64,000 nucleotides of DNA from Escherichia phage vB_EcoM_G53: the sequence record MK327943.1. One strand, given 5' to 3'. Under the pieces are notes generated by a model. It searched no databases, was not told the origin of the DNA, and worked only from the letters and a program-made list of their open reading frames with translations. Below are positions 3,626 through 40,104 of this stretch, in pieces. The position numbers and the translations under genes were made by a program. The stretch's first letter is position 1. Every line of letters begins with the position of its first letter.

Positions 3626-3665
3626 AGCCTTATTAAAATTAAAATGAAGCTCCCGAAGGAGCTTA
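3626..3665 (-). terminator. intrinsic terminator-like hairpin (UUCG loop) plus U-rich tract after gene 39
   Basis: minus strand aagctcc-ttcg-ggagctt followed by cattttaattttaat; 5' arm overlaps the gene 39 stop. Confidence 0.45.
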
Positions 3666-5480
3666 GGACATCCATTCTTTACGAAGTTCTGAATCATCAC
3701 CCATCAACATTTCAAAGAGTTCTTTCCAATTTTCAGGAAGTTTAACTACGTCGTACACAGGGTTCTGAATCATTTCACGATATTCTGACTTTTCAAGGGA
3801 GCCTAATCCCTTGATGTATCTAATACTATGCTTAGGCAGTGTATCTTTAACTTCTTCATACTCAGCTACAGTATAAAACCATTTTTGAGTTTTGCCAATT
3901 TGTGCAATAATTACAGGCGTTTTAACAAAGCGAATACGTCCTTGTTCAAACAATTCAGGCCAATTACTAAAGAAAGCAAGCAAAGCCGGATAGATACTTC
4001 CAAGACCGTCGTGATCTGCATCGGTCATAATTGCAATATTATGATAGTTCGTATTCTCTGCCTTTTCACCAAGAATAAGACCTGTGATAGCACAGATATC
4101 AAAGAGCTCTTTGTTCTTCATCATATCAGCATATGACATACCCCAGCTATTCATCACCTTACCGCGTAATGGGAATCCACCGTGTAGTTCACGGTCACGA
4201 ACATCAATGAGATAACCAATTGCCGAATCACCTTCTGTTAAAAACAATGTCGTATCTGCATCTTTACCACATTGGTTAGCTTTAATATGCTTATGAACCT
4301 TAGCTTTAGTTGCCTTTTTAGCTGCTTTAGTTTCTGCAGCCTTTTCTGCTGCCAATTTACGAGCTAATGCTGCTTCAACAATAGGCATAATCAAGGCTTC
4401 GTTTTTAAGAAGCGCCTGAGCAATTTTCTTAGCATCTAATTGGATATGATTACGAATATCACCATACGTTGACGTTAAACGTTCTTTAGTCTGAGAATCA
4501 AAACGCATGTTGCTCATGTCTCTAATAAACATCAACATTGTGAGGCATTCTTTAACACGAGCTTTAGTGACTTCAATACCCTTATATTTCTTTTTAATAC
4601 CCGGTAAAAGATGTTCGCAGATATCGTCCATTACACATTCAACATGATGTCCACCATTTTTAGTATGGATGTTATTCACATAAGTTAAATGACGGAAGCC
4701 ATCTGGTGATGTTGTGAATGCTATAGAGACTTTATCATTTTCTTGAATGATGTTATCTTCACCAAATTGTTTAGCAAATCGTTTAAAATTACCATCAACC
4801 TTTTTACCATTAAATGTGAACTTGATATCAGGATAAACGACTGCCAATGTTTGAAGTCGGTCTAAAGTAATATCTAAATAAATTTGAGATAAATTATGCT
4901 CTTCAAATGAAGAGAAATCAGGAGTGAAGATTACTTTAGTGCCTTTACCTTTAGATTTCTTAGAAGACCATGATTTGTTTTCCATTCCGTTTGAACAGTT
5001 AACAGTGATTTCATTTTCGCCATCTGACGTGATGCCTGTAAACAACGTAGAGAAGATATTAGTTAAACTACTCCCGACGCCGTTCATACCACCAGTCTTG
5101 CGTTCAGAGTCATCACCAAAGTTACCACCGGCCTTTGGAATAGTCCAGGCTGCTACAGGCCCAGGAATTTGTTCACCCGTTTGGTCAGTAACTAAACCTT
5201 GAGGAATACCACGTCCGTTATCTTCCACCAAAACTTGATTATTTTTAATTTGCACATCAATTTTATTTGCAAACTTAAATGATGTACGAATAGCTTCATC
5301 AACCGAGTTGTCAATAATCTCATCGATTAATTTAACCAGACCAGGAACATATTCAACTTGTTGATATTTACCAAACAAAAAACGCTCATGTGCTTCTTTA
5401 GCAGAAGAACCAATATACATACCACTACGTTTCTTAATATGTTCTACATCTGACAATACCTTAATTTCATTTTTAATCAT
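3663..5480 (-). CDS. 39: DNA topoisomerase II large (ATPase, GyrB-like) subunit, unsplit gp39
   Basis: 605-aa ORF; GHKL ATPase and TOPRIM-like motifs (VEDNGRGIP, GGNFGDD); T4 synteny. Confidence 0.85.
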   Translation of the reverse strand: MIKNEIKVLSDVEHIKKRSGMYIGSSAKEAHERFLFGKYQQVEYVPGLVKLIDEIIDNSVDEAIRTSFKFANKIDVQIKNNQVLVEDNGRGIPQGLVTDQTGEQIPGPVAAWTIPKAGGNFGDDSERKTGGMNGVGSSLTNIFSTLFTGITSDGENEITVNCSNGMENKSWSSKKSKGKGTKVIFTPDFSSFEEHNLSQIYLDITLDRLQTLAVVYPDIKFTFNGKKVDGNFKRFAKQFGEDNIIQENDKVSIAFTTSPDGFRHLTYVNNIHTKNGGHHVECVMDDICEHLLPGIKKKYKGIEVTKARVKECLTMLMFIRDMSNMRFDSQTKERLTSTYGDIRNHIQLDAKKIAQALLKNEALIMPIVEAALARKLAAEKAAETKAAKKATKAKVHKHIKANQCGKDADTTLFLTEGDSAIGYLIDVRDRELHGGFPLRGKVMNSWGMSYADMMKNKELFDICAITGLILGEKAENTNYHNIAIMTDADHDGLGSIYPALLAFFSNWPELFEQGRIRFVKTPVIIAQIGKTQKWFYTVAEYEEVKDTLPKHSIRYIKGLGSLEKSEYREMIQNPVYDVVKLPENWKELFEMLMGDDSELRKEWMS

Positions 5481-5502
5481 GTTGTCTCCTCGTTATGAAG
5501 GT

Positions 5503-5527
5503 ATTCTATCATCCGAAATCTAAAGCA
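5503..5527 (-). promoter_or_regulatory. middle (MotA-dependent) promoter candidate for gene 39
   Basis: minus strand TGCTTTA box, 12-nt gap, TAGAAT -10; followed by GAGGAG SD and the ATG at 5480. Confidence 0.45.
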
Positions 5528-5545
5528 AAAAGGGCCGAAGCCCTT
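5522..5545 (-). terminator. intrinsic terminator (UUCG tetraloop hairpin + U-tract)
   Basis: minus strand aagggc-ttcg-gccctt followed by ttttgcttt, immediately after the stop of the 145-aa ORF. Confidence 0.55.
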
Positions 5546-5981
5546 ATTTAAATTTAATTTTCTGAAGTGTATCAATTGCAGCTAAACGCCCTTGTTCACT
5601 TTTAACTGTAATGACCACATCGCCTGATACGATCACCGAACCATCAACAAATTCTATAGAGCCTTTTTTGAAATCGACAGCTGTATCTGGTTCCGGAACT
5701 TCTTCAAAGAATTTAAATTCTGCACCATAAATCAGAATATCACCTTGCATACTATGAATAGTTCGGCCATAATCACCTACGGCTTCTACAGCAATCACTG
5801 AAACACCATAACCAATCATCTCTTCCACAATAAAATCTTTAGACAATAAAGTAGTATGCAGATTAGTATTAAGACGTTTACCAGTCGTATTAAGAATTCT
5901 CAAGAAATTATCTTCCTGTCCTTTGATAATACGATATTTCTTACCAACTTCAAAACCTTTAAAAGACGTATTAAAAGCCAT
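5544..5981 (-). CDS. hypothetical protein
   Basis: 145-aa ORF between gene 39 and the Zn-ribbon ORF. Confidence 0.5.
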   Translation of the reverse strand: MAFNTSFKGFEVGKKYRIIKGQEDNFLRILNTTGKRLNTNLHTTLLSKDFIVEEMIGYGVSVIAVEAVGDYGRTIHSMQGDILIYGAEFKFFEEVPEPDTAVDFKKGSIEFVDGSVIVSGDVVITVKSEQGRLAAIDTLQKIKFK

Positions 5982-33296: not shown

Positions 33297-33301
33297 TTGC
33301 T

Positions 33302-33679
33302 TTAATTACCAATTGTATATTTTGCTTTCAAAGTCCAGTCATCTTTCTGTTTAAAAGAGATAACACGGAAGTTATTAGTCAGGCCAAACAGATCTTCACG
33401 AGCAGAGTCTTCAATAACAATCAATCCCCAGTCTTCAAGCAACTGAGCAATCGAATCACGTCGCTGATAGTCTTCACCGTCAATATCAACCTGACGTCCA
33501 TCCATACGCAGCATTTCTTTAAAGTGGACGATGTAGTATTTACCTTGCTTTTGGAGGATATGACAGGACTGATAAAGGACTTTATCCTTGTTATTAGCGA
33601 TGCCCATACGGGTCAAAGTCTCTTTGACTTTCAGAAAATCTTCAGGGTTCTTCAATTTAATTTCAATCATTTTTACCAT
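33302..33679 (-). CDS. regA: translational repressor RegA
   Basis: 125-aa ORF; near-identical over much of its length to T4 RegA as I recall it ([32 protein letters not shown]). Confidence 0.9.
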
Positions 33680-36433: not shown

Positions 36434-36634
36434 TTATTCGTAGAAGTCGGTAACTGTCCATGCGGAATTGCGATTAGACATTATTTTATTATACTCATCT
36501 TTAAAAGCAGATTTGAGCATTTGTTCAGTGACAATATGTTCTTCACCTGAAAACGTATTGGTCAAAACATATTTTTTAATTTCAGGGACAACGAGAAGAT
36601 GTTGTCCAGTTGAATACTCCATGTTGTTCTCCAT
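36434..36634 (-). CDS. small hypothetical protein
   Basis: 66-aa ORF. Confidence 0.4.
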   Translation of the reverse strand: MENNMEYSTGQHLLVVPEIKKYVLTNTFSGEEHIVTEQMLKSAFKDEYNKIMSNRNSAWTVTDFYE

Positions 36635-36676
36635 TTAATTTGATGTGGTCATTATAACCACATCGTGTTAAAGCGT

Positions 36677-38365
36677 TTATGAAACAGTCATTACAGTAAA
36701 TCGTCCAACTTTGCTCATTTGCAAATGTTGTCCATAACGTTGAGGGTCATGGTCCCTATGAGAAATAATGAACACGTTAGTATTTTGTAAACTTCCAAGA
36801 ATGGTATCTATAGCCTTAACAGCTTCAGAATCAACTGCCCCATCAAAAACCTCATCAAGAATCAGAGTGTTGATTTTAACACCAGAGACCTTTTCAGCAA
36901 TATCTCGCCATGTAAACAACAACGCGATATCAATGCGTGCTTTTTCACCTTGACTAAATGAAGCATAACTAAAATCTTCACGACCACGTGATTTTATAGA
37001 TTCATTGAATTCTTCATCAATAGAAAACACGTAATCAGCTTCCATGATTTTAAGATAATGGTTAATCTGCTTGTTGAACAGAGGCACATATTTTTTAATG
37101 ATAGCACCTTTAATACCAGAATCTTTTAACATATCTGTGATAATACCACGATGGTATTTTTCAAGAACGATATCTGATTTTGTTTTAATGATTTTATCAA
37201 GTTCTTTTTGAAGCAAAGCTATCTCATCGGCATGGTCGATAAATTCTGCTGAGGCTTGCTCTATTGCAGCTTTAACTTTCTTAGCTTTATCAATAGTGGC
37301 AATCATTGCTTGTTTCTTGGTACGAATATCAGATGCAAGGTCCTGTTTAGTCTTAACATTAGCTCTATATTCATCAACTAGGACACTCAGATTATCTCTG
37401 TGACAGGTAAGTTGCTCGAATGAGTGATTACATTCATGAAGCTTATCGGTAATCTTAGAGACAATAGGGTCACCCTGGTGCAATTGTGATGCACAAGTAG
37501 GACATGTGCCACCGTCATGATACATCTTAATAACTTTGTTATATGAGTCGATTTTAGATTTAATCAAGAATGCTTCTTGTCCTATCTTGTTGAATGCCTC
37601 AGTAGGGTCTTCATCAAGAACGATATTAAGTAGTCGCTCATTAGCTTCTTCGATTTCTGCTTTTAATGAACGAGCTTCTTTGGCTAGGTCGTCATACATA
37701 TTCTGTAGACGCGCTACATTATCACCAGATAATTTCTTTTGACGTTCGATATTCTCGTTATAAATCTTAATTTGTTGGATAATACCATCTTTCTTGGCAT
37801 CAAGAACTTGTCCCTGAGAATTAAGTTCGCGAACTTGAGACTTATTGATTTTATCCATTTCAGCGAGTGTGCCGACTTCTAAAAGGTCTTCGACAAGTTT
37901 TCTACGAGCAGGGGTGCTAAGAGCCATGAAAGGGGTATACCCTGCCGTCCCAAGCACAACGATTTGTTTAAAAGACGCGTATGACATTCCGATGCTACGT
38001 TCAAATTCTTCTTGGAAGTCACGACTGCTGGCAGATTCATCGAGACGAACACCGTCAACGGAGATTTCGAAAATATTGGGCTTTTGGCCGCGTCTAATGA
38101 AGTATTTTTTATCATCGAATTCCATCCAAAGCTCAACTAAGAGCTCTTTCTTGTTCGTGCTATTAATGATTTGTCCTTTCTTAACATCACGAAATGGTTT
38201 ACCGAAAAGTCCGAAAGTAATGGCTTCTAACATCGTAGATTTACCACCGCCATTTTTACCGGTGATTAATGTCTTTTGGACTTTATCTAATTGGATATCG
38301 ATAGGATTCCCACCTACCGACATGATGTTTTGATAACGAACACGATTTAATTTAAATGATTTCAT
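36677..38365 (-). CDS. 46: recombination endonuclease subunit gp46 (SbcC/Rad50-like ATPase)
   Basis: 562-aa ORF; Walker A GKNGGGKST, long coiled-coil with CPTC zinc hook, C-terminal Walker B LILDEVFD. Confidence 0.9.
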   Translation of the reverse strand: MKSFKLNRVRYQNIMSVGGNPIDIQLDKVQKTLITGKNGGGKSTMLEAITFGLFGKPFRDVKKGQIINSTNKKELLVELWMEFDDKKYFIRRGQKPNIFEISVDGVRLDESASSRDFQEEFERSIGMSYASFKQIVVLGTAGYTPFMALSTPARRKLVEDLLEVGTLAEMDKINKSQVRELNSQGQVLDAKKDGIIQQIKIYNENIERQKKLSGDNVARLQNMYDDLAKEARSLKAEIEEANERLLNIVLDEDPTEAFNKIGQEAFLIKSKIDSYNKVIKMYHDGGTCPTCASQLHQGDPIVSKITDKLHECNHSFEQLTCHRDNLSVLVDEYRANVKTKQDLASDIRTKKQAMIATIDKAKKVKAAIEQASAEFIDHADEIALLQKELDKIIKTKSDIVLEKYHRGIITDMLKDSGIKGAIIKKYVPLFNKQINHYLKIMEADYVFSIDEEFNESIKSRGREDFSYASFSQGEKARIDIALLFTWRDIAEKVSGVKINTLILDEVFDGAVDSEAVKAIDTILGSLQNTNVFIISHRDHDPQRYGQHLQMSKVGRFTVMTVS

Positions 38366-38616
38366 ATGTATTCTCTTCGAATGAAGTCCTCTACATATTT
38401 TAACATGTCATCTCTATCAGCAAAATATTCATCTAGTTCTGCATACATAACAACACCTGGTGCATACTCACAGGTAACATACATTGTTCCAAAGAAACGA
38501 GGAGTTGATTCCTCGTAATTCTCAGTCCATTCAACGATACCAATATAACCGTCACCAATACTAAATTCATGACGATGGATTTCATAATCAGTCTTCGTCA
38601 TTATACGCATCCTCAA
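38362..38616 (-). CDS. small hypothetical protein
   Basis: 84-aa ORF overlapping the gene 46 start by 4 nt. Confidence 0.4.
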   Translation of the reverse strand: MRMRIMTKTDYEIHRHEFSIGDGYIGIVEWTENYEESTPRFFGTMYVTCEYAPGVVMYAELDEYFADRDDMLKYVEDFIRREYI

Positions 38617-38845
38617 TACACGCTTCAGCCATTTTAAGAATAGAGCCGGGAGTATCGTTGTCCATTATATTAAAGCTAAATTCAATGGCCCAGTCGGTGC
38701 AGACATGAACTGCTTTAACTTCATTGCCTTCAACGCGTAATGGCTCAATCCAATACTTGATAGTGTTCTCGAATCCATCATCGTCTTTAACGTCCATTTC
38801 AACTTCAAGTCCAAGCCCAGCATTATTAAATTCATCTAAAGTCAT
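38588..38845 (-). CDS. small hypothetical protein
   Basis: 85-aa acidic ORF. Confidence 0.4.
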   Translation of the reverse strand: MTLDEFNNAGLGLEVEMDVKDDDGFENTIKYWIEPLRVEGNEVKAVHVCTDWAIEFSFNIMDNDTPGSILKMAEACIEDAYNDED

Positions 38846-39861
38846 TGTGTTGCCTCAATATAAAGTTCGTTGGAATATTTGACCAGCGCTTCTCTGTCTT
38901 CGTCTGAGATATCTGGAATCGCGTCAATATATTCTTTAATGATATCTTGAAGTGATTTAATCTCGATTTCCTGGTCGTCATCAGATTCAACACTGTTATC
39001 AACTTTAGAAACCATGCGAAGAGAGTGAACTACTTTTTCAAGTTCAGATTCAAACTTAGTCAACTCTGAATCAATTTCTGATACTATAACACGTAAGGCT
39101 AGATTAGTATAATCAGAATAATTGATTTTGCCTTTAAACGGATAAGTGATTCGTCGATGCCATGTTGTTTCATTAGGAATAAATTCCATACGTTCAACAT
39201 CAGTGTCAAATACCCAGAATCCGCGCGGGTCATTCTCATCACCTGCAGTAAGGGTCCATGGTGTCCCAATATATTTGACGTTAGCAGCTTCAGAGATTGT
39301 GTGGAAGTGGCCGGACCAGACTTGTTTATAGGTCTTTAAGAAATCAGGTTCAAGCCCATGAGACTTCATTCCTTTATAGAAATAAAAGCCATTCAGTTCC
39401 CAGTGCCCAACACAATACGCTGCGGAAGAAGTCTTGATGTGCTCTAAGATTTCACCTGTATTTTCTTCACACATCCATGGAACGATATCAATCAGACATC
39501 CGTCAAAATCTACAGTAGTCGGATGCTCGTAAATAGTAAAGTTTTCAAATTGAGTTAACAATTCAGAAACAGTGTTAGGTGTTATTGTATTCTTAAACGC
39601 CATGTCATGGTTTCCTATCGTGACATGAACGTGAATGCCTGCTTTAGAAATCATATCAACGATTTCACGATTGAATTCCATTGTACGATGTGTTATTGCT
39701 TTACGGACGTCAAACCAATCACCGTACTGAATCCAAGTTTTAATCCCGTGTTTCTTAGAGTATTCAATTGCTTGTTGAATACCATCACGTTGAATATCTT
39801 GAACCCATGGGTCGTCTTGTTTGACTCCGATATGGAAGTCGCCTAAGTGCAAAATTTTCAT
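38842..39861 (-). CDS. 47: recombination nuclease subunit gp47 (SbcD/Mre11-like)
   Basis: 339-aa ORF; phosphoesterase motifs LHLGDFH, GNHD, GHWH. Confidence 0.9.
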   Translation of the reverse strand: MKILHLGDFHIGVKQDDPWVQDIQRDGIQQAIEYSKKHGIKTWIQYGDWFDVRKAITHRTMEFNREIVDMISKAGIHVHVTIGNHDMAFKNTITPNTVSELLTQFENFTIYEHPTTVDFDGCLIDIVPWMCEENTGEILEHIKTSSAAYCVGHWELNGFYFYKGMKSHGLEPDFLKTYKQVWSGHFHTISEAANVKYIGTPWTLTAGDENDPRGFWVFDTDVERMEFIPNETTWHRRITYPFKGKINYSDYTNLALRVIVSEIDSELTKFESELEKVVHSLRMVSKVDNSVESDDDQEIEIKSLQDIIKEYIDAIPDISDEDREALVKYSNELYIEATQ

Positions 39862-39884
39862 ATTATTTCCTCATTAGTTAATTC

Positions 39885-39910
39885 ATTCTATCATCCGTTT
39901 ATAAAGCAAA
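39885..39910 (-). promoter_or_regulatory. middle (MotA-box) promoter candidate for gene 47
   Basis: minus strand TTTGCTTTA box, 11-nt gap, TAGAAT; box abuts the terminator U-tract. Confidence 0.45.
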
Positions 39911-39931
39911 AAAGGAACTCCGAAGAGTTCC
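39903..39931 (-). terminator. intrinsic terminator (UUCG tetraloop + U-tract)
   Basis: minus strand ggaactc-ttcg-gagttcc followed by ttttttgcttt. Confidence 0.6.
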
Positions 39932-40104
39932 TATCCACATAGTACACCGTACAGAGGCTCATTTGAACTTTTAAATCGAATGGGCTTGTACGTAATAGTT
40001 CCTTCGGCTTTAGCTTTATCATAAGACTCTTTAAAACGTCTCATTCTTTCTGCTTTGCCTTTACGGATTTTATCGAAATTTTCAGAAGTCGGGATGTTCG
40101 TCAT
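39931..40104 (-). CDS. small hypothetical protein (57 aa), not in ORF track
   Basis: MTNIPTSENFDKIRKGKAERMRRFKESYDKAKAEG...; GAGGTG SD; stop overlaps the terminator stem. Confidence 0.35.
   Translation of the reverse strand: MTNIPTSENFDKIRKGKAERMRRFKESYDKAKAEGTITYKPIRFKSSNEPLYGVLCG

Follow-up and report, generated by a model that had tools for sequence, protein, structure and literature searches.

Predicted UUCG terminator hairpins run directly into putative MotA-type middle promoters upstream of genes 39 and 47 in an RB69-like phage

Middle promoters of phage T4 follow the consensus (a/t)(a/t)(a/t)TGCTTtA near −30, with a −10 element TAnnnT located 12 ± 1 bp downstream (PMC2988021), and the middle-promoter consensus of RB69 resembles that of T4 (Nolan et al. 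2006, PMC1524935). The 58 mapped T4 middle promoters include P39 (+1 at 5349), P47 (+1 at 36576), and PmobB (+1 at 38682) (PMC2988021, Table 1); the mapping of P39 is credited to Guild et al. 1988 and that of P47 to Guild 1988 and to Hsu & Karam 1990 (in PMC2988021). Composite terminator/promoter cassettes of T4-like phages have already been named as well, the general form being called PeSL and the version with a Mot box PmSL (PMC2839356; PMC4122927). In both, a terminator or attenuator stem-loop lies directly upstream of a promoter, which is followed by a Shine-Dalgarno sequence and a start codon within one intergenic gap; the promoter of a PmSL consists of a TGCTT Mot box and a −10 element. 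Terminator and promoter activity of PeSLs has been demonstrated in reporter assays (PMC2839356; PMC4122927), in which termination by the RB49 PeSL stem-loops equaled that of rrnB T1 (PMC2839356). PeSLs mostly occupy hyperplastic regions, where they occur in many near-identical copies, while PmSLs have been described in Vibrio phage nt-1.

A further comparable case is the T4 mobE terminator with the nrdB middle promoter, where termination is partial (~30% of transcripts end at the poly(U)) and the adjacent middle promoter restores transcription of the downstream essential gene (PMC2988022). This terminator, however, is part of the mobE coding region, the promoter occupies an intergenic space of its own, and the U-tract and the Mot box do not overlap. 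For RB69, middle promoters Pm:5538 (5498-5538) and Pm:40046 (40007-40046, score 22, among the three best) and TransTerm terminators at 5535-5546 and 40044-40061 have been predicted (Nolan et al. 2006, PMC1524935, Additional files 4 and 6). These correspond to the two units described below, and the promoter and terminator coordinates already overlap in the published tables, but the elements are listed separately as predictions only and their overlap is not discussed. In GenBank record MK327934.1, which belongs to the same species, both hairpins are annotated as putative transcriptional terminators. Thus, both elements, and also their arrangement, are already known from the T4 experiments, the RB69 predictions, and the PeSL/PmSL concept.

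The DNA analyzed here, referred to as the window, is a stretch of 64,000 nt that corresponds to the first 64 kb of an RB69-like Mosigvirus genome. Sequence comparison showed that RB69 is collinear with the window and 96.7% identical to it across 44 kb. At site 1, upstream of gene 39, the two sequences do not differ, while at site 2, upstream of gene 47, a single base is different and falls within the −10 element (TAGAAT in the window, TAAAAT in RB69). Phage vB_Eco_mar005P1 is 100% identical to site 2 of the window and its 500-nt surroundings. A first-pass annotation had proposed that at both sites the T-run of a UUCG hairpin leads straight into a MotA box, followed 11-12 nt later by TAGAAT. 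Reading of the sequence revealed exactly this arrangement at both positions, and the window sequence, the annotated RB69 record, and BLAST bore out the proposed coordinates, spacings, and gene names. Both units read on the minus strand; the annotation had named no strand. The products gp39 (topoisomerase II large subunit, in its fused 39+60 form) and gp47 were identified through the annotated RB69 record and BLAST. The features are as follows:

6860-6832, minus strand: early-type promoter TGTACA-17-TACTAT after an AT-rich stretch, upstream of cef; matches RB69 Pe:6863
5544..5981, minus strand: ORF upstream of site 1, 145 aa, RB69ORF005c-like; TAA stop at 5546-5544
5530..5545 (5545-5530), minus strand: site-1 hairpin AAGGGC-UUCG-GCCCUU, predicted terminator stem-loop (sequence, folding, RB69 TransTerm, GenBank)
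5531-5527, minus strand: site-1 T-run, candidate U-tract and A/T-rich 5' part of the MotA box
5529-5521, minus strand: site-1 MotA box TTTGCTTTA, 9/9 consensus matches
5508-5503, minus strand: site-1 −10 element TAGAAT, after a 12-nt spacer from the MotA box
5491-5486, minus strand: Shine-Dalgarno sequence GAGGAG of gene 39
3663..5480, minus strand: gene 39, fused 39+60 topoisomerase II large subunit, 605 aa; ATG at 5480
39931..40104, minus strand: a-gt.2 homologue upstream of site 2, 57 aa; TAG stop at 39933-39931
39913..39932, minus strand: site-2 hairpin AGGAACTC-TTCG-GAGTTCCT (as RNA, AGGAACUC-UUCG-GAGUUCCU), predicted terminator stem-loop (sequence, folding, RB69 TransTerm, GenBank)
39913-39908, minus strand: site-2 T-run, common to the candidate U-tract and the MotA box
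39910-39902, minus strand: site-2 MotA box TTTGCTTTA, 9/9 consensus matches
39890-39885, minus strand: site-2 −10 element TAGAAT, after an 11-nt spacer from the MotA box
39872-39868, minus strand: Shine-Dalgarno sequence GAGGA of gene 47
38842..39861, minus strand: gene 47, SbcD/Mre11-like recombination nuclease subunit, 339 aa; ATG at 39861

Each unit has the same order of elements, namely the upstream gene's stop codon, a C(UUCG)G hairpin, five or six T, the MotA box, a spacer, TAGAAT, a Shine-Dalgarno sequence, and the ATG of the next gene. The site-1 stem consists of a core of four G-C pairs (GGGC/GCCC) extended by two A-U pairs. At both sites, the 5' arm of the hairpin overlaps the stop codon of the preceding gene, which is the TAA of the 145-aa ORF at site 1 and the TAG of the a-gt.2 homologue at site 2. 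The gaps between the stop codon and the next ATG measure only 63-70 nt, and each of them holds a stem-loop, a promoter, a Shine-Dalgarno sequence, and a start codon, which is the layout that defines PeSLs and PmSLs (PMC4122927). As with the described cassettes, both units mark junctions between variable and conserved genes. In contrast to PeSLs, however, there are just two copies with different stems, and these precede core replication and recombination genes instead of occupying a hyperplastic region.

This arrangement is non-random. The pattern TTCG-N(4-12)-TTTGCTTTA-N(11-12)-TAGAAT has exactly two occurrences in the window and was absent from all 100 shuffled sequences, while a looser MotA-promoter pattern was observed 18 times as compared to 4.6 ± 2.1 expected. 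C(UUCG)G hairpins with stems of at least six pairs are found seven times on the minus strand, the one that also encodes the surrounding genes, and never on the plus strand. Both hairpins fold as drawn, with minimum free energies of −11.1 (site 1) and −13.9 kcal/mol (site 2) for stretches of ~50 nt and core hairpin energies of −6.3 (site 1, 6-pair stem) and −9.6 kcal/mol (site 2, 8-pair stem). The folding z-score of the 50-nt context of site 1 was modest (−1.6). A generic terminator scan of the window recovered both hairpins, and an Rfam scan of the whole window at gathering thresholds returned no family, so the hairpins correspond to no curated RNA family.

Both sites fit the T4 middle-promoter consensus, with all nine positions of the box matching and TAGAAT following at 12 nt (site 1) and 11 nt (site 2). 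RB69 encodes MotA and AsiA; motA and asiA are absent from the 64-kb window and in this genome type are located near 160-163 kb. The first-pass annotation had placed genes 39 and 47 behind MotA middle promoters, and this part of it is strongly supported by the consensus matches, the presence of motA and asiA in RB69, and the mapped T4 orthologues. We thus regard both sites as predicted MotA-dependent middle promoters. When the coordinates were checked on the T4 sequence, the P39 and P47 starts each lay exactly 7 nt past the −10 hexamer. By analogy with T4 P39, transcription from site 1 is predicted to start near 5496; the predicted start of site 2 lies near 39878.

The closest experimentally mapped relative of site 1 is T4 P39, which also precedes gene 39 and has its parts in the same order. 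A C(UUCG)G hairpin that ends at −32 follows a stop codon, the MotA box and the −10 element after it are separated by 12 nt, and the short leader contains a Shine-Dalgarno sequence. The T4 sequence reads AAAGGCC-TTCG-GGCCTTT-AGCTTTA-12 nt-TATAAT and thus differs from site 1 in the box, TTTAGCTTTA (A for T), and in the −10 element, TATAAT. The stems also differ, GGCC/GGCC in T4 as compared to GGGC/GCCC in the window, which amounts to a compensatory pair swap. The U-tract of T4 P39 is just UUU. The upstream genes are unrelated: in T4 this position is occupied by 39.1, to which the 145-aa ORF of the window showed no homology. Moreover, T4 gene 39 is split from gene 60.

The T4 counterparts of site 2 are P47 and PmobB, both of which are cassettes of a hairpin and a MotA promoter with the hairpin ending at −31 or −33. 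Upstream of 47.1/47, the T4 sequence reads AAAGGGC-TTCG-GCCCTTT-AGCTTTA-12 nt-TATAAT. PmobB shares the 5' flank of site 2, that is, the 3' end of a-gt.2 (...CCTCTGTAyGGyGTAyTATGTGGATAGGA), and the a-gt.2 homologue of the window is 76% identical to the T4 protein. With P47, in turn, site 2 has the downstream gene 47 in common. T4 runs from a-gt.2 through the PmobB cassette, mobB, a-gt, and a second cassette (P47) to 47.1 and 47, whereas the window, like RB69, has one cassette and neither a-gt nor 47.1. Our initial assignment of site 2 as a plain orthologue of T4 P47 was therefore revised, its 5' half corresponding to PmobB. The site-2 stem (GGAACUC) is unlike the stems of either P47 or PmobB, whose U-tracts are weak.

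The hairpin is not a general attribute of middle promoters. In a survey of the region upstream of all 58 mapped middle-promoter starts on the assembled T4 genome, only 3 (P39, P47, and PmobB) had an adjoining C(UUCG)G hairpin, which ended at −31 to −33 in each case; the idea that all or most middle promoters carry one was rejected. Thus, the hairpin is no part of middle-promoter function but a feature of a few junctions. Among the other T4 promoters, P43 has a hairpin inside the promoter itself, and at P24.3 one is found further upstream.

As to the terminator half, six of the first eight nucleotides 3' of the stem are U at both sites (T-scores of 4.26 and 4.76). A d'Aubenton-Carafa-type score, computed with modern energy parameters and hence with an approximate threshold, was positive for both, with d = +11 at site 1 and d = +21 at site 2. 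The same score fell below the threshold for T4 P39, P47, and PmobB (−13, −14, and −27, respectively), since the boxes there read TTTAGCTT or TATATTGCTT; the terminator predicted at T4 P39 is thus weak as compared to that at site 1. Immediately before GCTT, the 6 nt contain a mean of 5.2 T in the fused promoters of the window and of its non-T4 relatives. The mean at the same positions is 2.35 T and 2.15 A for 34 unfused T4 middle promoters, just one of which has at least five T. Because the MotA box needs only A or T here, the near-all-T run looks like a selected U-tract, and its excess of T argues for real termination in the window phage. Together, the T content and the terminator score suggest that termination is plausible and probably partial in the window phage and weak in T4. 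The weak T4 U-tracts also imply that the hairpin cannot have been conserved in all cases as an efficient terminator.

The terminators proposed by the first-pass annotation are accordingly predicted by several routes (RB69 TransTerm, the putative terminators of the GenBank record, the d score, and the T-rich run), all of them computational. A literature search found no genome-wide 5'- or 3'-end maps (Cappable-seq, Term-seq) for T4 or RB69 and no S1 mapping, and a DksA RNA-seq paper makes no mention of these promoters. The same annotation held that the units insulate genes 39 and 47 from early transcription and place them under middle-mode control. This was right in kind, as a terminator is predicted to be combined with a MotA promoter, but overstated in view of the weak T4 U-tracts and of read-through in T4, where many and perhaps all such genes receive transcripts both from middle promoters and by read-through from early ones (PMC2988021). 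Given this dual route, "insulation" is better read as attenuation, and full insulation by the hairpin is unlikely to be general.

To follow the units across relatives, we surveyed the region upstream of gene 39 in 36 IMG/VR loci, which yielded 25 distinct upstream sequences whose stems were read by direct inspection. A perfectly paired hairpin was present in 17 of the 25, and in 16 of these 17 it abutted a MotA-like box with a −10 element; in the remaining one (L037), the hairpin is followed by a different, uvsX-like promoter. Six sequences lack the hairpin but retain the MotA promoter, and three lack both. Five kinds of stem were found (GGGC/GCCC, GGCC/GGCC, GGAGC/GCTCC, GGAGCC/GGCTCC, and GAGCC/GGCTC), together with five loops (UUCG, UACG, UUAG, UAAC, and CUAGU). 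The gene 47 unit was found in Mosigvirus, Dhakavirus (JS98), Karamvirus, Jiaodavirus, and T4, again with differing stems, while in Gelderlandvirus gene 47 has the promoter alone. The upstream sequences indicate that the hairpin-plus-promoter unit has been kept across at least five genera with changed stem sequences, and that the promoter is older than the hairpin. Retention of the hairpin despite differing stems suggests that it has been selected as a structure at this spot. The unit predates the split of T4, RB69, JS98, Karamvirus, and Jiaodavirus and outlives the replacement of its stem. Its U-tract appears to be selected in most lineages and to have decayed in T4 itself; thus, the T4 model may under-represent the separation of early and middle units in relatives.

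The genes upstream of the two sites form early units. At site 1, the unit cef-goF-39.2-ORF5544 starts at the early-type promoter at 6860-6832, which probably supplies the early transcripts arriving at the hairpin, and ends at the hairpin, with ORF5544 as its last gene. Early promoters at about 42.3-43.9 kb feed the unit ending at site 2. The RB69 early-promoter list of Nolan contains no entry below 6813 and none between 20971 and 42465. With no early promoter predicted downstream, the genes past both cassettes would rely on middle promoters and read-through, in agreement with the idea of the first-pass annotation. By coordinate, the RB69 lists contain at least eight predicted terminators that precede a predicted early promoter by no more than about 25 nt, and another three that precede a middle promoter. 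In T4, the minus strand carries 19 of the 21 C(UUCG)G hairpins with stems of at least five pairs, and early-type promoters come after several of the hairpins. A terminator followed by a promoter is thus the usual way in which the early region of these genomes is punctuated.

We consider it probable that each unit is a composite cassette in which the intrinsic (Rho-independent) terminator of an early unit is joined without a gap to a MotA/AsiA-dependent middle promoter. According to this model, early transcripts would originate at sigma70-type early promoters located 1.3-3 kb upstream of the cassettes. The C(UUCG)G hairpin would form while the polymerase transcribes the T-run, and a fraction of the transcripts would terminate, leaving the upstream mRNA with a 3' end capped by the hairpin. 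The T-run would at the same time provide the A/T-rich 5' part of the MotA box. AsiA would remodel region 4 of sigma70, and MotA, once present, would bind TTTGCTTTA at about −30. RNA polymerase is then expected to start about 7 nt past TAGAAT and to produce a leader of 16-17 nt with a strong Shine-Dalgarno sequence, followed by gene 39 or 47. The extreme compaction of the region, with 63-70 nt from stop codon to ATG, would account for the fusion of terminator and promoter.

Compaction might also be the whole explanation, the terminators and promoters simply being crowded into tiny gaps and the overlap of the U-tract with the MotA box being a matter of economy that has no function of its own. 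We hold this to be possible, with somewhat less than an even chance. The size of the gaps and the adjacencies in the RB69 lists fit such economy, as does the T4 survey, in which 3 of the 58 middle promoters abut a hairpin that promoter function evidently does not need. Against it, the adjacency has been kept over five genera while the stems were replaced, and two of the seven window hairpins stand in exact register with a MotA promoter, for which we estimate a chance probability of about 2e-5 from the hit density of the looser pattern. Economy, moreover, explains the geometry and is compatible with the composite cassette, so it is no true alternative to it. A rather unlikely reading is that the hairpin serves mainly as a stabilizer of RNA 3' ends or as a processing barrier. 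It would protect the upstream mRNA from 3'->5' exonucleases after partial termination or endonucleolytic cleavage, while most early transcripts would continue past it into genes 39 and 47, which would be fed by this read-through together with the middle promoter and would not really be insulated. This would explain why the T4 orthologues keep the hairpin despite their poor U-tracts and negative d scores, and why C(UUCG)G hairpins are also found where no terminator is expected, within coding sequence (window 22609-22590; T4 22348-22329). The stems are short (4-7 G-C/A-U pairs), yet the UUCG tetraloop provides unusual stability (PMC4371310). However, in the window and most non-T4 relatives the near-all-T run before GCTT goes far beyond the A/T preference of the MotA box and bears the signature of a selected U-tract; both window sites score as terminators, and the PeSL stem-loops of RB49, a related phage, terminate as efficiently as rrnB T1 in a reporter assay.

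An explanation of another kind, which we find unlikely, is that the cassette persists chiefly as a junction that is mobile or prone to recombination (a PmSL as understood by Comeau, Arbiol, and Krisch), that is, as a crossover point for the flanking genes with which the regulation travels along. The concept is documented for PeSLs (PMC2839356; PMC4122927), and several comparative observations agree with it. The site-1 upstream gene is unrelated to T4 39.1 while the hairpin, the promoter, and gene 39 are kept; site 2 combines the 5' flank of T4 PmobB, a-gt.2, with the 3' flank of P47, gene 47; mobB, a-gt, and 47.1 lie between two cassette copies in T4 where the window has a single cassette; and uvsX-promoter-like sequence lies past the gene 39 hairpin in L037. 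The two window cassettes, which both belong to the core replication region, share TTTTTGCTTTA and the 13-mer CGGATGATAGAAT, through which they are each other's best match in 64 kb and in the same register, and T4 P39 and P47 share an unusual TTTAGCTTTAT box and a nearly identical hairpin. Yet a 13-mer match is expected by chance about 0.07 times in 128 kb by our own estimate, which leaves only the identical register as significant. The hairpins differ in sequence, and the shared homology is limited to two blocks of 11-13 nt. The window contains just these two copies, separated by 34 kb that include essential genes; excision between them would be lethal, and no recombination product was observed. 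A junction is also compatible with the regulatory reading, as it accounts for the persistence of the cassette and not for its function.

Read as composite cassettes, the two units are a re-discovery of a textbook-level feature of regulation in the T4 family, one that opens no new question. For the annotation of this genome, they set the boundaries of two transcription units and provide two middle promoters with probable start sites, and the comparative results add modest value.

Two further ideas are improbable and are given as speculation. The zero-distance fusion could be a functional coupling device and not mere compaction, as a terminating polymerase would be released within the MotA box, some 30 bp short of the next start. 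This position allows two possible consequences. Released core RNA polymerase may stay on the DNA and be recaptured by the AsiA/MotA-remodeled sigma70, so that termination and reinitiation recycle the enzyme; alternatively, MotA or RNA polymerase at the box may act as a roadblock that raises termination, turning a leaky terminator early in infection into a tight one in the middle period. Such coupling, if true, would be a compact natural case of cross-talk between a terminator and a promoter. The other idea is that gene conversion homogenizes the two cassettes of one genome, which is suggested by the 13-mer shared in the window and by the box and hairpin that P39 and P47 have in common in T4.

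The promoters of the hairpin-promoter cassettes upstream of genes 39 and 47 have in common an identical 13-mer, CGGATGATAGAAT (minus strand, 5515-5503 and 39897-39885), which covers the end of the spacer and the -10 element and lies in the same register in both. In T4, the middle promoters P39 and P47 share an unusual TTTAGCTTTAT box and have nearly identical hairpins. Together, the common 13-mer in the window and the common box and hairpin in T4 suggest homogenization of the cassettes within a genome.

Window 39861-39933 was compared with T4 36447-38735 (locus L057). In T4, two hairpin-promoter cassettes enclose the homing endonuclease gene mobB, a-gt, and 47.1, whereas in the window and RB69 a-gt.2 is separated from gene 47 by just one cassette, which marks the indel junction.

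Further hairpins, promoter-like sequences, and an ORF found in the window are as follows:
20854-20833, minus strand: C(UUCG)G hairpin and T-run, followed directly by an early-type promoter, GGTTTACA-17-TATGAT
53098-53081, minus strand: C(UUCG)G hairpin and T-run, followed directly by an early-type promoter, GTGTACA...TACTAT
33298-33279, minus strand: C(UUCG)G hairpin AATGGGAC-TTCG-GTCCCATT upstream of gene 43
33298-33323, plus strand: perfect TGCTTTA-11 nt-TATATT beyond this same regA/43 hairpin, on the opposite strand
23925-23870, minus strand: promoter region upstream of uvsX, with hairpin GGCTC-GTTAA-GAGCC
22609-22590, minus strand: 8-bp C(UUCG)G hairpin TCCCCTTC-TTCG-GAAGGGGA within the 5' portion of gene 40
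3664-3647, minus strand: C(UUCG)G hairpin with a weak T-run (CATTTTAATTTT), overlapping the gene 39 stop codon
2520..3620: ORF of 366 aa, RB69ORF003c, next after the gene 39 stop hairpin

The units at 20854-20833 and 53098-53081 are terminator/early-promoter cassettes of the PeSL type known from T4-like phages, and as such they are the early-class counterparts of the hairpin-middle-promoter units of genes 39 and 47.

For the hairpin upstream of gene 43, the T4 orthologue extends to -19 relative to the start of P43, a mapped middle promoter, and the GCTT within its GGGGC-TTCG occupies the position expected for the MotA-box core; thus, the box is supplied by the terminator loop itself. In contrast, the window has ACTT at this position; TATAAT lies 5 nt past its hairpin. 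The plus-strand sequence is directed antisense into regA, and T4 has TTGCTTAA-10 nt-TATATT at the equivalent position. This antisense match probably arises incidentally from the conserved 3' coding sequence of regA.

The uvsX hairpin is weaker and is followed 13 nt on by AAATGCTGTA-12 nt-TATAAT. Past the gene 39 hairpin of an IMG/VR relative (L037), TTTAAAGTTT..AATGCTGTATAA replaces the usual box and closely resembles the uvsX promoter of the window. Given this uvsX-like sequence at a gene 39 hairpin, promoter modules appear to be exchangeable.

The gene 40 hairpin, conserved as an 8-bp C(UUCG)G hairpin at T4 22348-22329, lies within coding sequence just past the uvsX stop and lacks a U-tract. 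Instead of terminating transcription, it may act in RNA stability or processing. Past the 3' end of gene 39, which encodes the unsplit 605-aa 39+60 form, RB69ORF003c takes the position held in T4 by mobA/60.1/60.
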